From the NCBI RefSeq assembly GCF_024502345.1, contig NZ_JALDNN010000001.1: a stretch of DNA of 64,000 nt. One strand, 5' to 3'. The notes under the pieces were generated by a model. That model saw nothing but the letters and a program-made list of their open reading frames with translations. It did not search any database and was not told the DNA's origin. The position numbers and the translations under genes are program-made. The DNA is from Escherichia coli (lineage in GTDB: Bacteria; Pseudomonadota; Gammaproteobacteria; Enterobacterales; Enterobacteriaceae). Shown here in pieces: positions 1,532 through 53,939 of the stretch (position 1 is its first letter; every line of letters begins with the position of its first letter).

Positions 1532-2749
1532 CTACACGTCCAGCAGCAGACGCGTCGGATCTTCCAGCAACTCTTTGATTGTTAACAGGAAGCCAACGGA
1601 TTCGCGACCATCGATCAGACGGTGATCGTAGGACAGCGCCAGGTACATCATCGGCAGGATCTCAACCTGACCATTCACAGCCATCGGACGATCTTTGATA
1701 GCGTGCATACCCAGAATTGCGCTCTGCGGCGGGTTGATGATAGGCGTAGACATCAGGGAACCGAACACACCACCGTTGGTGATGGTGAAGTTACCACCGG
1801 TCAGATCTTCAACCGTCAGCTTGCCGTCACGGCCTTTAACTGCCAGCTCTTTGATTTTCTTCTCGATGTCTGCCATGCCGAGGGTATCGACATCACGCAG
1901 TACCGGCGTCACCAGGCCGCGCGGCGTAGAAACCGCCATGCTGACGTCGAAATAGTTGTGGTAAACCACGTCATCGCCGTCGATAGAAGCATTCACTTCC
2001 GGGTAACGTTTCAGGGCTTCAACCACCGCTTTCACGTAGAAGGACATAAAGCCCAGACGGATGCCGTGGCGTTTTTCAAATGCTTCACCGTACTGCTTAC
2101 GCAGATCCATAATCGGCTTCATGTTGACTTCGTTGAACGTGGTCAGCATGGCGGTGGAGTTTTTCGCTTCCAGCAGACGCTCTGCCACACGCTTACGCAG
2201 GCGAGTCATCGGGACACGTTTTTCGCTACGTGCAGCCAGAGCCGGTTGCGCCGCCGGAGCAGCCGCTGCCGGAGCAGACTCTTTCGCCGGAGCTTTCGCC
2301 AGATGTTTTTCCACATCTTCACGGGTCAGACGACCACCCACACCGGTGCCTTTAATGGCGCTGGCGTCGAGGTTATGTTCAGCCAGCAGGCGACGGATCG
2401 CCGGGCTTAACGCATCGTTGTTTTGCTCTTCCAGAGACGCCTGCTGGCGTTGCGCCGGAGTGGACGCTTTCTCTTCAGATTTGGCGCTGGTTTCTTTACC
2501 GGCGCTGTTGCCTTCACGCAGGCGACCAAGGATCTGACGAGACGTTACCGTTGTACCTTCATCTTCCAGAACCGCATCCAGAATGCCATCTGCTGATGCC
2601 GGTACTTCCAGTACCACTTTGTCAGTTTCGATTTCTACCAGCACTTCATCACGTACGACTGCGTCGCCGGGTTTTTTATGCCAGGTTGCGACGGTGGCAT
2701 CGGCTACGGATTCAGGCAGGTCAGGGACCAGAATATCTACGCTACTCAT
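1532..2749 (-). CDS. sucB: 2-oxoglutarate dehydrogenase E2 (dihydrolipoyl succinyltransferase)
   Basis: 405-aa ORF with N-terminal lipoyl domain ([26 protein letters not shown]...) and C-terminal acyltransferase catalytic domain (DHRLIDG). Confidence 0.97.
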
Positions 2750-2763
2750 TGTGTATCCTTTAT

Positions 2764-5565
2764 TTATTCGACGTTCAGCGCGTCATTAACCAGATCTTGT
2801 TGCTGTTTCTGGTGAACGGACATATACCCTACCGCCGGAGAGGCGGAGGCCGGGCGGCCTGCATAACGCAGAGAAGCCCCAAACGGAATCACTTCACGGA
2901 AATGATGCTGGCTGCAGTACCATGCGCCCTGGTTGAGCGGCTCTTCCTGGCACCAGACAAAATCCTTGACGTGAGCAAACTGCTGCAACACTTCCTGCAT
3001 CGCTTTATGCGGGAACGGGTAGAGTTGCTCGATACGCACAATGGCGACATCATGTTGATTGTTCTTACGACGCTGTTCCAGCAGGTCGTAATAAACCTTA
3101 CCAGAACACATCACTACGCGCTTCACGCCCTTCGGATCAAGCTCGTCGATTTCACCGATGGCTGGCAGGAAGGTGCCGTTCGCCAGTTCTTCGAGGCTGG
3201 AAACCGCCAGCGGATGACGCAGCAGGGATTTCGGCGACATCACTACCAGCGGACGACGCATCCCGCGCAGCGCCTGACGACGCAGCATGTGGTAAACCTG
3301 TGCCGGGGTAGACGGAACGCAAACCTGCATGTTTTGCTCAGCACAAAGTTGCAGATAACGTTCCAGACGCGCGGAGGAGTGCTCCGGCCCCTGCCCTTCG
3401 TAACCGTGCGGCAGCAACATCACCAGACCACACATCCGGCCCCATTTCTGTTCGCCAGAAGAGATGAACTGGTCGATAACCACCTGCGCACCGTTGGCGA
3501 AGTCACCGAACTGCGCTTCCCAGATGGTCAGAGTGCGTGGTTCTGCGGTGGCATAACCGTATTCAAACGCCAGCACTGCTTCTTCAGACAGTACGGAGTC
3601 CCAGACGCGGAACGCGCCCTGCCCGTTATGGATGTGTTGCAACGGCGTGTAAGTGGAACCGTTAGACTGGTTGTGGATCACCGCGTGGCGGTGGAAGAAG
3701 GTACCGCGACCGGAGTCTTCACCCGACAGGCGAACCGGAATGCCTTCGTCAACCAGCGTGGCGTAAGCGAGGTTTTCCGCACCGCCCCAGTCGAACAGTT
3801 TTTCACCGGCAGCCATCGCCTGGCGATCGCCATAAATCTTGGCAACGCGAGACTGCATTTCAACTGCTTCCGGCACCGTGCTGATGCGTTTCGCCAGCTC
3901 CTGCAGGCGCTTCATCTCAACTTTGTTCGGGTACTCTTCGTCCCATTCGTGGTTGAGGTACGGCGACCAGGTGAAAGAGTGCATGTTCATCGGACGCCAC
4001 TCTGCCACTACGCAATCGCCAGCATCCAGCGCATCGCGGTACAGGTTAACCATCTCGGTGGCATCTTCCAGCGTCGCCACTTTTTCCTGCTCCAGCTTGT
4101 CAGCGTAGATTTTGCGCGGTGTCGGATGTTTTTTGATTTTCTGATACATCAGCGGCTGGGTTGCGCTCGGCTCGTCGGCTTCGTTGTGGCCGTGACGGCG
4201 GTAGCACACCAGGTCGATGAAGACATCACGTTTAAAGGTGTTACGGAAATCGAGCGCCAGACGGGTCACAAAGGCAACGGCTTCCGGATCATCCGCGTTA
4301 ACGTGGAAAATCGGTGCCTGAACCATCTTACCGATATCAGTACAGTACGGTGTAGAACGAGCATCCAGCGGATTAGAGGTGGTGAAACCAACCTGGTTGT
4401 TGATAACGATACGTACCGTACCGCCAACTTCATAACCACGCGCTTTCGACATGTTCAGAGTTTCCTGAACCACGCCCTGCCCGGTCACTGCGGCGTCACC
4501 GTGGATGGTGATTGGCAGCACTTTGTTGCTGCTCGGCTCATCAAGTCTGTCCAGACGGGCACGAACAGAACCGATAACTACCGGGCTTACAATCTCAAGG
4601 TGAGACGGGTTAAACGCCAGCGCCAGGTGCACCAGGCCGCCATCGGTCTGGAAGTCAGACGAGAAGCCCATGTGGTATTTCACGTCACCCGTGCCGAGGT
4701 GTTCTTTATGTTTACCGGCAAACTCGTCGAACAAGTCTTGCGGTTTTTTACCCAGCACGTTCACCAGCACGTTCAGACGACCACGGTGCGCCATCCCAAG
4801 AACCACTTCGCGGGTGCCGCTGTTGCCAGCGTGGCGGATCATCTCTTTAAGCATCGGGATTAACGCGTCACCGCCTTCCAGCGAGAAGCGTTTTGCGCCA
4901 GGGAATTTTGCGCCGAGGTAACGTTCAAGGCCTTCAGCGGCGGTCAGTTCGCTTAAGAAGCGTTTTTTCTCTTCGCTATTGAAAGTCGCGCGACCAGACT
5001 CGATACGCTGTTGGATCCAGCGTTTTTCTTCGGTGCTGGTAATGTGCATATACTCGGCACCAATCGGGCCACAGTAGGTTTGCTTGAGTGCTTCCAGCAG
5101 CTCGCCGAGTTTCATGGTTTCTTTGCCGCTGGCAAATGAACCGACGTTGAAGGTTTCCTGGAAGTCTGCTTCGGTCAGATCGTGGAAAGACGGATCCAGA
5201 TCGGCCACTTTATCTTGCTGCCACAGTCCCAGCGGATCGAGATTCGCATGCTGGTGACCACGGAAGCGGTATGCGTTAATGAGCTGCAGGACTTTAACCT
5301 GCTTCACATTGGTGTCAGGGTCGGAGATCGTTGAAGAGTAACGTGAAGCGTCTTTCGCCAGGCGGCGGAAATATTCACGCGTTTGAGAGTGGAATTGATC
5401 CGGTTTGACTCCCGTACCAGGTAACTGCTGGAACGTCGAACGCCAGTTAGCGTCAACCGAGTCAGGATCGGTTAAGAAGTCTTCATAGAGCTGTTCTATC
5501 CAGCTCTGGTTTGCGCCAGAGAGGTAAGAAGAGTCCAACCAGGCTTTCAAAGCGCTGTTCTGCAT
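2764..5565 (-). CDS. sucA: 2-oxoglutarate dehydrogenase E1 component
   Basis: 933-aa [34 protein letters not shown]...; thiamine-diphosphate E1 family, length matches E. coli SucA. Confidence 0.97.
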
Positions 5566-49860: not shown

Positions 49861-51525
49861 ATGTGTTCAATTTTTGGCGTATTCGATATCAAAACAGACG
49901 CAGTTGAGCTGCGTAAGAAAGCACTCGAGCTGTCACGCCTGATGCGTCATCGTGGCCCGGACTGGTCCGGTATTTATGCCAGCGATAACGCCATTCTCGC
50001 TCACGAACGTCTGTCAATTGTTGACGTTAACGCGGGGGCGCAACCTCTCTACAACCAACAAAAAACCCACGTACTGGCGGTAAACGGTGAAATCTACAAC
50101 CACCAGGCATTGCGCGCTGAATATGGCGATCGTTATCAGTTCCAGACAGGGTCTGACTGTGAAGTGATCCTCGCGCTGTATCAGGAAAAAGGGCCGGAAT
50201 TTCTCGACGACTTGCAGGGCATGTTTGCCTTTGCCCTGTACGACAGCGAAAAAGATGCCTACCTGATTGGTCGCGACCATCTGGGGATCATCCCACTGTA
50301 TATGGGCTATGACGAACACGGTCAGCTGTATGTGGCCTCAGAAATGAAAGCCCTGGTGCCAGTTTGCCGCACGATTAAAGAGTTCCCGGCGGGGAGCTAT
50401 TTGTGGAGTCAGGACGGCGAAATCCGTTCTTATTATCATCGCGACTGGTTCGACTACGATGCGGTGAAAGATAACGTGACCGACAAAAACGAGCTGCGTC
50501 AGGCACTGGAAGATTCCGTTAAAAGCCATCTGATGTCTGATGTGCCTTACGGTGTGCTGCTCTCGGGTGGTCTGGATTCCTCAATTATTTCCGCGATCAC
50601 CAAGAAATACGCCGCCCGTCGCGTGGAAGATCAGGAACGCTCTGAAGCCTGGTGGCCGCAATTACACTCCTTTGCTGTAGGTCTGCCGGGTTCACCGGAT
50701 CTGAAAGCAGCCCAGGAAGTGGCAAACCATCTGGGCACGGTGCATCACGAAATTCACTTCACTGTACAGGAAGGTCTGGATGCCATCCGCGACGTGATTT
50801 ACCACATCGAAACTTATGATGTGACCACAATTCGCGCTTCAACACCGATGTATTTAATGTCGCGTAAGATCAAGGCGATGGGCATTAAAATGGTGCTGTC
50901 CGGTGAAGGTTCTGATGAAGTGTTTGGCGGTTATCTTTACTTCCATAAAGCGCCCAACGCTAAAGAACTGCATGAAGAGACGGTGCGTAAACTGCTGGCC
51001 CTGCATATGTATGACTGCGCGCGCGCCAACAAAGCGATGTCCGCCTGGGGCGTGGAAGCGCGCGTTCCGTTCCTCGACAAAAAATTCCTTGATGTGGCGA
51101 TGCGTATTAACCCACAGGATAAAATGTGCGGCAACGGCAAAATGGAAAAACACATCCTGCGTGAATGTTTTGAAGCGTATCTGCCTGCAAGCGTGGCCTG
51201 GCGGCAGAAAGAGCAGTTCTCCGATGGCGTCGGTTACAGTTGGATCGACACTCTGAAAGAAGTGGCGGCGCAGCAGGTTTCTGATCAACAGCTGGAAACT
51301 GCCCGCTTCCGCTTCCCGTACAACACGCCGACGTCCAAAGAAGCGTATCTGTACCGGGAGATCTTTGAAGAACTGTTCCCACTTCCGAGCGCCGCTGAGT
51401 GCGTACCGGGCGGTCCTTCCGTCGCGTGTTCTTCAGCTAAAGCGATCGAATGGGATGAAGCGTTCAAAAAAATGGACGATCCATCTGGTCGTGCGGTTGG
51501 TGTTCACCAGTCGGCATATAAGTAA
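49861..51525 (+). CDS. asnB: asparagine synthetase B (glutamine-hydrolysing)
   Basis: ORF-track 581 aa trimmed to MCSIFGVFDIKTDAVELRKKALE (554 aa; N-terminal Cys nucleophile after Met); RBS GGAGAAGG upstream. Confidence 0.97.
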   Translation: MCSIFGVFDIKTDAVELRKKALELSRLMRHRGPDWSGIYASDNAILAHERLSIVDVNAGAQPLYNQQKTHVLAVNGEIYNHQALRAEYGDRYQFQTGSDCEVILALYQEKGPEFLDDLQGMFAFALYDSEKDAYLIGRDHLGIIPLYMGYDEHGQLYVASEMKALVPVCRTIKEFPAGSYLWSQDGEIRSYYHRDWFDYDAVKDNVTDKNELRQALEDSVKSHLMSDVPYGVLLSGGLDSSIISAITKKYAARRVEDQERSEAWWPQLHSFAVGLPGSPDLKAAQEVANHLGTVHHEIHFTVQEGLDAIRDVIYHIETYDVTTIRASTPMYLMSRKIKAMGIKMVLSGEGSDEVFGGYLYFHKAPNAKELHEETVRKLLALHMYDCARANKAMSAWGVEARVPFLDKKFLDVAMRINPQDKMCGNGKMEKHILRECFEAYLPASVAWRQKEQFSDGVGYSWIDTLKEVAAQQVSDQQLETARFRFPYNTPTSKEAYLYREIFEELFPLPSAAECVPGGPSVACSSAKAIEWDEAFKKMDDPSGRAVGVHQSAYK

Positions 51526-51532
51526 GAAATGC

Positions 51533-51565
51533 GAAACAGCCCCGGTGAAATCCGGGGCTGTTTCA
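51533..51565 (+). terminator. rho-independent terminator after asnB
   Basis: AAACAGCCCCGG-TGAAAT-CCGGGGCTGTTTCAATT: perfect 12-bp stem followed by a T-containing tail. Confidence 0.8.
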
Positions 51566-51836
51566 ATTATTGAGGTGCCTGTTGATTCTGATATGCAGTA
51601 AGGAAATGTTCCGGGTTTGCCACATCACTGTTTGACAACTCATCACTGTAGGCCAGTATTTCATAGATTAATTTCCCACCACTATTGTTGAATTCCGAAT
51701 TTCATCCTGTATGACAAAAGAATGGCTGTAGGGTGGGGAAAAAACACAAAGTAAACAATAATTGACGAATATAGCGCCACGCTGTTCGCAACCTAACCAA
51801 ACAGTCACTTTCGAGCAATTTTCCTTGAAAAAGAGG

Positions 51837-51866
51837 TTGACGCTGCAAGGCTCTATACGCATAATG
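51837..51866 (+). promoter_or_regulatory. sigma70 promoter of the tRNA operon (stringent-type)
   Basis: TTGACG (-35), 17-bp spacer, CATAAT (-10) followed by GC-rich discriminator GCGCCCC, about 40 nt upstream of the first tRNA. Confidence 0.6.
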
Positions 51867-51905
51867 CGCCCCGCAACGCCGATAAGGTATCGCGAAAAAA
51901 AAGAT

Positions 51906-51982
51906 GGCTACGTAGCTCAGTTGGTTAGAGCACATCACTCATAATGATGGGGTCACAGGTTCGAATCCCGTCGTAGCCACCA
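51906..51982 (+). tRNA. metT: tRNA-Met (elongator, anticodon CAU)
   Basis: GGCTACGTAGCTCAGTTGGTTAGAGC...CTCATAA...GGTTCGAATCC...GTAGCCACCA; cloverleaf elements and encoded CCA. Confidence 0.95.
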
Positions 51983-51991
51983 TCTTTTTTT

Positions 51992-52076
51992 GCGGGAGTG
52001 GCGAAATTGGTAGACGCACCAGATTTAGGTTCTGGCGCCGCAAGGTGTGCGAGTTCAAGTCTCGCCTCCCGCACCA
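51992..52076 (+). tRNA. leuW: tRNA-Leu (anticodon UAG)
   Basis: GCGGGAGTGGCGAAATTGGTAGACGC...TTTAGG...long variable arm...GAGTTCAAGTCTCGCCTCCCGCACCA. Confidence 0.95.
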
Positions 52077-52099
52077 TTCACCAGAAAGCGTTGTACGGA

Positions 52100-52174
52100 T
52101 GGGGTATCGCCAAGCGGTAAGGCACCGGTTTTTGATACCGGCATTCCCTGGTTCGAATCCAGGTACCCCAGCCA
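52100..52174 (+). tRNA. glnU: tRNA-Gln (anticodon UUG)
   Basis: TGGGGTATCGCCAAGCGGTAAGGCACCGGTTTTTGATACCGG...GGTTCGAATCCAGGTACCCCAGCCA. Confidence 0.93.
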
Positions 52175-52208
52175 TCTTCTTCGAGTAAGCGGTTCACCGC
52201 CCGGTTAT

Positions 52209-52283
52209 TGGGGTATCGCCAAGCGGTAAGGCACCGGTTTTTGATACCGGCATTCCCTGGTTCGAATCCAGGTACCCCAGCCA
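52209..52283 (+). tRNA. glnW: tRNA-Gln (anticodon UUG)
   Basis: Identical copy of the 52100..52174 tRNA-Gln(UUG) sequence. Confidence 0.93.
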
Positions 52284-52298
52284 TCGAAGAAACAATCT

Positions 52299-52375
52299 GG
52301 CTACGTAGCTCAGTTGGTTAGAGCACATCACTCATAATGATGGGGTCACAGGTTCGAATCCCGTCGTAGCCACCA
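52299..52375 (+). tRNA. metU: tRNA-Met (elongator, anticodon CAU)
   Basis: Identical copy of the 51906..51982 tRNA-Met sequence. Confidence 0.95.
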
Positions 52376-52423
52376 AATTCTGAATGTGTCGAATACGTTC
52401 GGCAAATTCAAAAACCAATTTGT

Positions 52424-52498
52424 TGGGGTATCGCCAAGCGGTAAGGCACCGGATTCTGATTCCGGCATTCCGAGGTTCGAATCCTCGTACCCCAGCCA
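52424..52498 (+). tRNA. glnV: tRNA-Gln (anticodon CUG)
   Basis: TGGGGTATCGCCAAGCGGTAAGGCACCGGATTCTGATTCCGG...GGTTCGAATCCTCGTACCCCAGCCA. Confidence 0.93.
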
Positions 52499-52535
52499 AT
52501 TTATTCAAGACGCTTACATCGTAAGTGCACCCAGT

Positions 52536-52610
52536 TGGGGTATCGCCAAGCGGTAAGGCACCGGATTCTGATTCCGGCATTCCGAGGTTCGAATCCTCGT
52601 ACCCCAGCCA
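52536..52610 (+). tRNA. glnX: tRNA-Gln (anticodon CUG)
   Basis: Identical copy of the 52424..52498 tRNA-Gln(CUG) sequence. Confidence 0.93.
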
Positions 52611-52614
52611 CATT

Positions 52615-52650
52615 AAAAAAGCTCGCTTCGGCGAGCTTTTTGCTTTTCTG
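52615..52650 (+). terminator. rho-independent terminator of the tRNA operon
   Basis: AAAAAAGCTCGC-TTCG-GCGAGCTTTTTGCTTTT: GNRA-like tetraloop hairpin plus T-run. Confidence 0.85.
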
Positions 52651-52654
52651 CGTT

Positions 52655-52755
52655 CATTCAATGTCGAATGCGATGTTGACACGTCTTATCCTTCAATGTC
52701 GGATGCGACGCTGCCGCGTCTTATCCGACCTACGGTTGGCACGCATCCGGCAATG
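52655..52755. repeat. REP-like palindromes between tRNA operon and ubiF
   Basis: TGTCGAATGCGATGTTGACACGTCTTATCC and TGTCGGATGCGACGCTGCCGCGTCTTATCCGACCTAC repeated units. Confidence 0.6.
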
Positions 52756-52763
52756 TTGTAAGG

Positions 52764-53939
52764 CTACAACCCTAACGCATATTTCAGCGCCTGACGTTTC
52801 AACACGCCAGCACGCTCTGCCGCCATTAACCCGAGATTACGCACAAAACGCAGCGGCGGCAGATTATTACTGAATCCGGCATAAAACAGATCCATACCAC
52901 TTTGCATAATGAAGTTATCCGCCATGCGCCGCATCTGGTAACGCTTGAGGACAGGATAACTGGCCCACGCTTCACCGTAGCTGCGGGCATTCACCAGAAC
53001 ATCAATCAGGGCATCGACATCACGATAACCAAGATTCACCCCCTGCCCCGCCAGCGGATGGATGGTATGCGCGGCATCGCCCACCAGCGCAAGCCCCGGC
53101 TGCACATACTGCAACGCATGTCGGCGCGTCAGCGGAAACGCACCAGCGGCAAGCGGTGTAACGTAACCCAGACGCGACGGGAAATGCTTCGCGATTTCCG
53201 CCTGGAGTTGCGCCATATTCATATTCTGCAACTGGCGAATACGCACCGGAGAGTCATACCACACCAGCGATGCCCAGTTATCAAACAACGGCAGAAACGC
53301 ACGCGGTCCGTCCGGGGTAAATTGCTGCCAGGTGCTGTCGCCGGGATCGTTCTCACACTGTACGCTAATCAACATACACGACTGCGCATACTGCCAGGCA
53401 TGAACGCCAATTCCCGCCATCTGCCGCACCTGCGAATTTGCTCCGTCAGCACCAATCACCAGCTTCGCGCGAATCACTTCACCGCCCTTCAGTTCCAGCT
53501 CCTGAAGATCATTATCTCGATGTAATGCAATCAGCGAGCCTAGCACACGTAACGTTACTTTCGGATGAGCTTCCAGCGCCTGCCACAATGCCTGTTGCAG
53601 GACGGTGTTTTCCACCATATAGCCAAGCAGCGGCAGCTTAAGTTCAGCGGCGTCAAACATCACATGCGCCGTTTCCCACTCCCACGTTTCCAGTCTGCGG
53701 TAAGGATGGCAACGCATAGCCTGTACTGCATCCCAGACCCCTAACCCTTTAAGCAATGATACCGATGCGGCGCTGATCGCCGAGATCCGCACGTCCGGTT
53801 GGCTATCAGCGACAAACGGTGCAGGTTCTGCGTGCTCGATCACCGTTACCGAAAATCCGTGCTGTGCCAGCCCCAGCGCCAGTGCGCCGCCGACCATTCC
53901 TCCGCCGACAATGGCAATTTCCGTTGGTTGATTTGTCAT
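52764..53939 (-). CDS. ubiF: 3-demethoxyubiquinol 3-hydroxylase (FAD-dependent monooxygenase)
   Basis: ORF-track 393 aa; likely start MTNQPTEIAIVGGGMVGGALALGLAQHGF (391 aa); FAD GxGxxG and DAAH motif. Confidence 0.93.
   Translation of the reverse strand: MTNQPTEIAIVGGGMVGGALALGLAQHGFSVTVIEHAEPAPFVADSQPDVRISAISAASVSLLKGLGVWDAVQAMRCHPYRRLETWEWETAHVMFDAAELKLPLLGYMVENTVLQQALWQALEAHPKVTLRVLGSLIALHRDNDLQELELKGGEVIRAKLVIGADGANSQVRQMAGIGVHAWQYAQSCMLISVQCENDPGDSTWQQFTPDGPRAFLPLFDNWASLVWYDSPVRIRQLQNMNMAQLQAEIAKHFPSRLGYVTPLAAGAFPLTRRHALQYVQPGLALVGDAAHTIHPLAGQGVNLGYRDVDALIDVLVNARSYGEAWASYPVLKRYQMRRMADNFIMQSGMDLFYAGFSNNLPPLRFVRNLGLMAAERAGVLKRQALKYALGL

Follow-up and report, generated by a model that had tools for sequence, protein, structure and literature searches.

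The seven-gene tRNA array of a 64-kb Escherichia coli sequence as the metT operon, with proposed processing and history

Gene content and identity of the array

Within the 64 000 nt of E. coli DNA analysed here (the window), ARAGORN run on positions 51000-53500 finds exactly seven tRNA genes, all on the plus strand and together spanning 51906-52610 (Table 1); over the whole 64-kb window it finds no tRNA genes beyond this array. The seven calls are far above chance level: with the Rfam model RF00005, 7/7 genes score 57.6-71.1 bits (gathering score 29; E-values from 6e-15 to 3e-11), the matches span the full model (positions 1-71) and their 5' ends agree with those of ARAGORN, which adds the encoded CCA. 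The inter-tRNA spacers computed from the ARAGORN coordinates measure 9, 23, 34, 15, 48 and 37 nt from 5' to 3', and pairwise identity is 100% over the full length for metT and metU, for glnU and glnW, and for glnV and glnX. Gene boundaries, anticodons, identical pairs and spacer lengths are all exactly as listed in the original prediction, and ARAGORN and Rfam agree on them.

Table 1. Features of the tRNA array and its flanking signals, in window coordinates
Feature	Position	Strand	Basis
Promoter region of the metT operon	51828..51881	+	consensus scan, 10/12 matches; cross-genus conservation
Invariant A-tract (AAAAA)	51828-51832	+	
-35 element TTGACG, followed by a 17-nt spacer	51837-51842	+	
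-10 element CATAAT	51860-51865	+	
GC-rich discriminator and start of the leader, GCGCCCCGCAACGCCG	51866-51881	+	
5' leader arm of the predicted helix, AAAAAAAAGAU	51896..51905	+	inverted repeat, MFE fold, covariation in 22 genomes
metT, elongator tRNA-Met (CAU)	51906..51982	+	ARAGORN; Rfam, 71.1 bits; identical to K-12 b0673
3' arm of the predicted helix, A76 of metT plus the 9-nt metT-leuW spacer UCUUUUUUU	51982..51991	+	inverted repeat, MFE fold, covariation
leuW, tRNA-Leu (UAG), 85 nt, long variable arm	51992..52076	+	ARAGORN, Rfam, K-12 b0672
glnU, tRNA-Gln (UUG)	52100..52174	+	ARAGORN, Rfam, K-12 annotation
glnW, tRNA-Gln (UUG), same sequence as glnU	52209..52283	+	ARAGORN, Rfam, K-12 annotation
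metU, elongator tRNA-Met (CAU), same sequence as metT	52299..52375	+	ARAGORN, Rfam, K-12 annotation
glnV, tRNA-Gln (CUG)	52424..52498	+	ARAGORN, Rfam, K-12 annotation
glnX, tRNA-Gln (CUG), same sequence as glnV, wild type here	52536..52610	+	ARAGORN, Rfam, K-12 annotation
Rho-independent terminator	52616..52649	+	11-bp hairpin AAAAAGCUCGC-UUCG-GCGAGCUUUUU, then GCUUUUCU

Comparing the two Gln species, glnU and glnV differ at 7 positions, namely the wobble base and both sides of three stem pairs, each fully compensated, one in the anticodon stem (gene positions 30/38) and two in the T stem (49/63 and 50/62). All 7 changes relative to glnU are common to both CUG copies (glnV and glnX). Initiator tRNAs are recognized by an unpaired 1:72 position and by an anticodon stem with a run of three G:C pairs at its lower end. 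Both CAU genes of the array are elongator tRNA-Met genes without these signatures, and encode neither tRNA-fMet nor lysidine-modified tRNA-Ile2, since G1 and C72 are paired in their acceptor stem (GGCUACG/CGUAGCC) their anticodon stem (CAUCA/UGAUG) lacks the initiator G:C run, and both have the same sequence as the annotated metT and metU of K-12. In the literature, too, metT and metU are two identical elongator tRNA-Met genes (PMC6265465).

We have very little doubt that the array is the metT operon of E. coli, an essential stable-RNA unit between asnB and ubiF, for which we propose a processing pathway and a history, the latter weak in detail. The gene order Met(CAU)-Leu(UAG)-Gln(UUG)x2-Met(CAU)-Gln(CUG)x2 on a single strand agrees gene for gene, and anticodon for anticodon, with K-12 b0673-b0664. 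An alignment of 921 nt against K-12 contains 5 differences, all confined to the two distal spacers (2 substitutions and a 1-nt indel between metU and glnV, where the window has 48 nt and K-12 has 47 nt; 2 substitutions between glnV and glnX); the tRNAs, the promoter and the terminator are free of changes. Several E. coli chromosomes, e.g. those of strains S56 and A41, match a 1.1-kb query from around the array at 100% identity. In S56 the flanks read nagC-nagD-asnB-(7 tRNAs)-ubiF-miaB-ybeZ, with ubiF on the opposite strand, and the K-12 array also lies between asnB and ubiF. Evidence contradicting the identification was found neither in the tRNA prediction nor in the asnB/ubiF flanks, both of which were checked and agree. 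The unit is essential because all genes for elongator Met(CAU), Leu(UAG), Gln(UUG) and Gln(CUG) reside in it (PMC11480407, PMC6265465); it supplies every elongator tRNA-Met, every tRNA-Gln and the sole tRNA-Leu(UAG) of E. coli.

Transcription signals and proposed processing

The only promoter-like site found by a consensus scan is a sigma-70-like TTGACG-17-CATAAT at 51837-51865. By itself the scan is not significant (1 site found, 2.2 expected by chance), and it was therefore dropped as stand-alone evidence and replaced by cross-genus conservation. When the 110-nt stretches preceding the first Met gene are aligned for 11 Enterobacterales genera (from Escherichia to Budvicia), the columns AAAAA, GTTGACG and GCATAATGCGCCCCGCAACGCCG are invariant, and the promoter call is supported because these blocks fall exactly on the scanned elements. 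A GC-rich discriminator after the -10 element is typical of stable-RNA promoters. The precursor used in vitro begins at CGCAACGCCGATAAGGTA / CGCAACGCCG, i.e. at position 51872 (PMC3985628), and the transcript would probably start at about this position, some 7 nt past the -10 element. A separate internal promoter would have no room outside the tRNA bodies, as the inter-tRNA gaps are only 9-48 nt long.

At the other end of the array, the scan detects a hairpin (52616-52641) followed by a T run. Its MFE is -16.3 kcal/mol (z = -4.4), and 0/200 shuffles are as good. A hairpin with T run occurs at the same position in 12/14 Enterobacterales sampled, the stems differing between them with compensating changes. 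The terminator of the metT operon has been termed Rho-independent, and northern blots show a full-length transcript with all seven tRNAs (PMC2241853). A single promoter and a single terminator, as predicted for the array, are supported by the scan, the terminator fold and the cross-genus conservation of both signals; the seven genes would be co-transcribed between them, as the published blots show for the metT operon.

As to maturation, RNase E takes off the terminator and cuts the distal genes apart, RNase P frees the first five tRNAs from one another, and the 3' ends are completed by exonucleases (PMC2241853); in vivo, RNase E sites lie solely downstream of metU (PMC3985628). We propose that in the window a single sigma-70 promoter with a GC-rich discriminator would give rise to a transcript of ~770 nt ending at the Rho-independent terminator. 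RNase E would remove the terminator and cut in the spacers downstream of metU, RNase P would separate the upstream tRNAs and make all 5' ends, and 3' exonucleases would trim back to the encoded CCA. This would yield all elongator tRNA-Met of the cell, the only two tRNA-Gln species it has (UUG and CUG) and its sole tRNA-Leu(UAG).

We also observed an 18-nt inverted repeat on either side of metT. In a fold of 51872-52000 the leader pairs with A76 and the adjoining spacer (z = -2.5), and the predicted helix of ~10 bp prolongs the metT acceptor stem. The same register, with different sequences, is seen in Hafnia, Edwardsiella, Tatumella, Budvicia and Vibrio albus. Across 22 genomes 75.5% of cells pair (64.7% in shuffles, 0/500 of which reach this value) and the covariation score is 0.326 (0.142 in shuffles, again 0/500), every slid register scoring lower; both sets of figures are inflated by sequence relatedness and A/T richness. 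The mean contiguous pairing run is 2.6 for first Met genes and 0.8 for internal Met genes, from which the pairing is absent. These observations are no more than suggestive of a helix conserved through compensating changes in other Enterobacterales and some Vibrionaceae. That it might be a conserved processing determinant, e.g. by timing RNase P cleavage at the first tRNA or by protecting the 5' end, is a possibility about which we are rather doubtful. RNase P is inhibited when the leader pairs with the 3' RCCA, as shown with tRNA-Met (metT) and its genomic leader as substrate; a longer helix with the trailer is not discussed in that study (PMC9433436). A literature search found no description of a leader-trailer helix for the metT operon.

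Comparative genomics and history of the array

Orthologous loci were collected by a scan with the first 44 nt of metT, requiring an exact tRNA-Met match and taking one genome per species, which yielded at least 120 loci; the sample held no Salmonella, Klebsiella, Yersinia or Pasteurellaceae. Architectures were determined with ARAGORN and synteny with tblastn for asnB, ubiF and miaB. According to tblastn, the array beside ubiF-miaB is orthologous from Escherichia to the Vibrionaceae, Alteromonadaceae and Idiomarinaceae. The arrays of Serratia, Hafnia, Budvicia and these three families resemble that of E. coli in a leading elongator Met followed by Leu(UAG) and Gln(UUG) and in the ubiF-miaB neighbourhood, and those of the Enterobacterales have the same promoter block, whereas copy numbers and module content differ among the Gammaproteobacteria. 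Among the loci listed, outgroups have Met-Leu(UAG)-Gln(UUG), frequently with one further Gln and in no case with Gln(CUG), and the Vibrionaceae carry up to 4-5 tandem Met-Leu-Gln units, as in Photobacterium. The E. coli layout with 2+2 Gln genes is found, again among the loci listed, in most Enterobacteriaceae, Hafnia and Edwardsiella; others have one Gln(CUG) (Serratia, Rouxiella, Tatumella), three Gln(CUG) (Superficieibacter, strain RIT691, one Pluralibacter) or four Gln(UUG) (Serratia silvae), and Budvicia has Met-Leu-Gln-Gln and after it another promoter-Met-Leu-Gln, the spacers of the two being near-identical. Across these listed loci the number of Gln copies per block ranges from 1 to 4, and no Gln(CUG) gene occurs in Budvicia, Vibrionaceae or Alteromonadaceae.

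The two UUG copies are identical inside a genome and different between genera (types U1, U2, U3 and U6). Identical CUG pairs are found as C1/C1 in Escherichia, Phytobacter and Hafnia and as C2/C2 in Citrobacter and Kluyvera, whereas in Enterobacter, Lelliottia and Pseudocitrobacter the two members of the pair diverge by 5-10 nt, and some CUG genes there look mosaic, with mixed acceptor, anticodon-stem and T-stem blocks. Also within E. coli the array is still changing in natural isolates, through unit loss and chimera formation: in strain 4621 one CUG unit has been cleanly deleted (and an additional 585-nt ORF lies ahead of ubiF), while STK77-E contains a Gln/Met chimera joined at the common T-arm GGTTCGAATCC, after which the metU-glnV spacer appears a second time. 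In the assembly of CEA224S the array is missing from the asnB-ubiF interval, and the array query matches nowhere else; as the metT unit is essential, this absence is probably an assembly artefact.

We favour a scenario, weak in its detail, that begins with an ancestral Met-Leu-Gln(UUG)(-Gln) core, from which the array expanded at its present site. To this core a second Met-Gln module would have been added, its Gln moving to CUG with compensating stem changes, and Gln copies would then have been repeatedly gained, lost and homogenised through recombination between tandem copies. From the sequence comparisons, Leu seems to be ancestral and not added, since outgroups have Met-Leu-Gln(-Gln) at the orthologous locus; the first module appears to be older than the second, and Gln copy number to have changed often. 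That glnV and glnX are identical in E. coli is best read as a homogenised, derived state and not as a frozen duplicate, because CUG pairs elsewhere are divergent and mosaic. The single Gln(CUG) of Serratia, Rouxiella and Tatumella could equally possibly be the ancestral state or a secondary loss, the latter in view of the two diverged CUG lineages and the mosaic genes of the Enterobacteriaceae. The second module of Budvicia was considered as a picture of the ancestral second module and rejected, its near-identical spacers and promoter copy indicating a recent private duplication.

The original prediction had proposed that a Met-Gln-Gln unit was anciently duplicated in tandem and that the Gln anticodon diverged afterwards; in its strict form, the ancestral block would have been duplicated whole, only the anticodon of the second pair would then have diverged, and Leu would be an unrelated addition. 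The array does read Met-(Leu)-Gln-Gln/Met-Gln-Gln, with identical Met copies and identical copies in each pair, and among the loci listed the 2+2 layout is shared by most Enterobacteriaceae, Hafnia and Edwardsiella. As a history, however, we regard it as unlikely. Between UUG and CUG genes there are 7 differences, and since both CUG copies share all of them, either a duplication of Gln after the divergence or gene conversion/homogenisation is needed, a step that the model is missing. The outgroup state includes Leu, some lineages have 1, 3 or 4 Gln genes per block, and CUG pairs elsewhere are non-identical and mosaic. The modules also lack spacer homology: when all six spacers, the leader and the trailer were aligned locally with each other and compared with shuffled controls, no pair was significant (best p = 0.088 over 28 comparisons), and the pairs expected to be homologous under the Met-Gln-Gln model gave p = 0.16-0.40. 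As no pair beats the shuffled controls, the spacers support no duplication order, and their unequal lengths, which had been taken to fit an ancient duplication, carry no information on it. Somewhat less probable still is that the copies are identical solely by purifying selection on each of them, with neither gene conversion nor re-duplication. Indeed, tRNA bodies are strongly constrained, and 5/5 differences from K-12 lie in spacers; but species-specific substitutions are present in both copies of a pair (U1, U2, U3 and U6; C1/C1 and C2/C2), block mosaics occur among the CUG genes, and recombination does occur, as seen from the unit loss and the Gln/Met chimera of E. coli isolates.

We see next to no chance that the array is a horizontally acquired tRNA island (of a phage or an integrative element) and not core chromosome, although tRNA arrays with repeated genes are known in phages and islands and a dispersed repeat lies just downstream of the array. 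The query is matched in 5424/5426 complete E. coli genomes, 5349 of these 5424 having 80% or more of the array together at a single site; in every record listed or inspected the match is chromosomal and, wherever the query reached that far, beside ubiF. The asnB-array-ubiF-miaB synteny extends across the Enterobacterales and beyond, and four essential tRNA species have their sole genes in the array. The flanks consist of housekeeping genes, and their annotation shows no integrase or att-like features. A mobile or phage-borne array was thus rejected on its near-universal presence and on synteny conserved across orders.

The supE locus and comparison with known operons

The metT operon is the origin of the classical supE and supB suppressors, which are used throughout molecular genetics, and the original prediction was right in naming the CUG pair as the supE-type locus. 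In the window both CUG genes have the wild-type CTG anticodon and not the CUA of supE-type alleles; it does not come from a suppressor strain. The laboratory strain TUM22763, on the other hand, has as its sole difference from K-12 between the 3' end of metU and the terminator a change from CTG to CTA in the seventh gene, which ARAGORN reads as a CUA tRNA and PGAP leaves unannotated. The supE44 allele of laboratory K-12 strains is likewise a single anticodon change from CUG to CUA at this locus, in one of the two identical genes: it is a G to A change in the seventh gene, glnX (glnX44), and not in glnV, to which it was earlier assigned and as the old name glnV44 suggests (PMC4444293, PMC11148124). 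Because each Gln isoacceptor is duplicated, one CUG copy would be free to turn into CUA (supE) while the cell survives.

The metT operon is long known and a textbook case, and its recognition in the window is correct but ordinary. It resembles the argX-hisR-leuT-proM, glyW-cysT-leuZ and valV-valW operons in having one promoter and one terminator and in maturing by endonuclease and then exonuclease action. It differs from them in its mixed RNase E/RNase P pathway, whereas for argX and glyW RNase E is the sole enzyme required at this step and for valV-valW it is RNase P (PMC2241853).

Leader and spacer structures within the metT operon

The 5' leader of the operon (51896-51905) can pair with positions 51982-51991, which comprise A76 of metT and the 9-nt metT-leuW spacer; this leader-trailer pairing is predicted to lengthen the metT acceptor stem by ~10 bp. 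Comparing 22 related genomes, we obtained a covariation value of 0.326 for the helix against 0.142 in shuffled controls (reached in 0 of 500 shuffles), figures that are inflated by the relatedness of the genomes and the A/T-rich sequence and are hence suggestive only. The pattern suggests that compensating changes preserve the helix across other Enterobacterales and some Vibrionaceae. When internal Met genes were compared with first Met genes, no leader-trailer pairing was found at the internal ones.

Further downstream, small hairpins are predicted in both distal spacers (metU-glnV and glnV-glnX), the region of reported RNase E cleavage (PMC3985628). All differences between K-12 and the window (5 of 5) are confined to these two spacers.

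Hairpins and repeats in and beyond the distal part of the operon
Feature	Coordinates	Predicted fold (kcal/mol)	z	Location
Small hairpin	52381-52410	-11.4	-3.3	one distal spacer
Small hairpin	52511-52527	-6.1	-2.2	other distal spacer
Dispersed repeat	52645-52765			directly 3' of the terminator; overlaps the 3' end of ubiF (opposite strand)
Direct repeat	52654-52688 / 52689-52723			inside the dispersed repeat

The dispersed repeat contains REP/BIME-like motifs, e.g. CGTCTTATCCGACCTAC; individual E. coli genomes carry it at 7-35 places, with a median of 22.

Aberrant arrays in E. coli assemblies

A natural six-gene variant of the array is present in strain 4621 (L123; NZ_CP103479.1, locus positions 1526-2824), where one Gln(CUG) gene is cleanly gone together with its spacer, and a 585-nt hypothetical ORF lies between the terminator and ubiF. 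In STK77-E (L125; NZ_CP162190.1, locus positions 796-966) the array has a Gln/Met chimera as its sixth gene, the metU 3' end being fused to the 5' part of glnV at the shared T-arm GGTTCGAATCC; after it the metU-glnV spacer occurs for a second time. The chimera arose either by recombination or through faulty assembly. In the assembly of strain CEA224S (L124; NZ_CP166080.1, locus positions 2622-3155) the interval from asnB to ubiF is devoid of tRNA genes, and the array query matches only one short place in the entire record, corresponding to the terminator end of the array. Because the operon is essential, this absence is probably an assembly artefact.

Duplicated modules and Gln(CUG) genes in other genera

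We compared window positions 52424-52610 with loci of Enterobacter, Lelliottia and Pseudocitrobacter (L035, L071, L108, L016, L064 and L011). The two Gln(CUG) genes of these genera are non-identical, differing at 5-10 of 75 nt, and some of them appear to be mosaics derived from two old lineages. In E. coli, Hafnia, Citrobacter and Kluyvera the pair is homogenised to one or the other type.

Duplication of larger units is seen in Budvicia (L018, positions 1739-2629, and L076), where the -10 and discriminator region of the promoter is repeated ahead of the second module, Met-Leu-Gln(UUG). The spacers of this module hardly differ from those of the first, which, together with the promoter copy, indicates that the whole promoter-plus-three-gene unit was duplicated recently. 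The array of Orbaceae/Gilliamella (L003 and L078) reads Met-Leu(UAG)-Gln(UUG)-Leu(CAG)-Gln(CUG); here the Leu-Gln unit is duplicated and both wobble bases of the second copy are C. Its Gln(CUG) resembles E. coli glnV in that both share an anticodon stem of the A31:U39 type.
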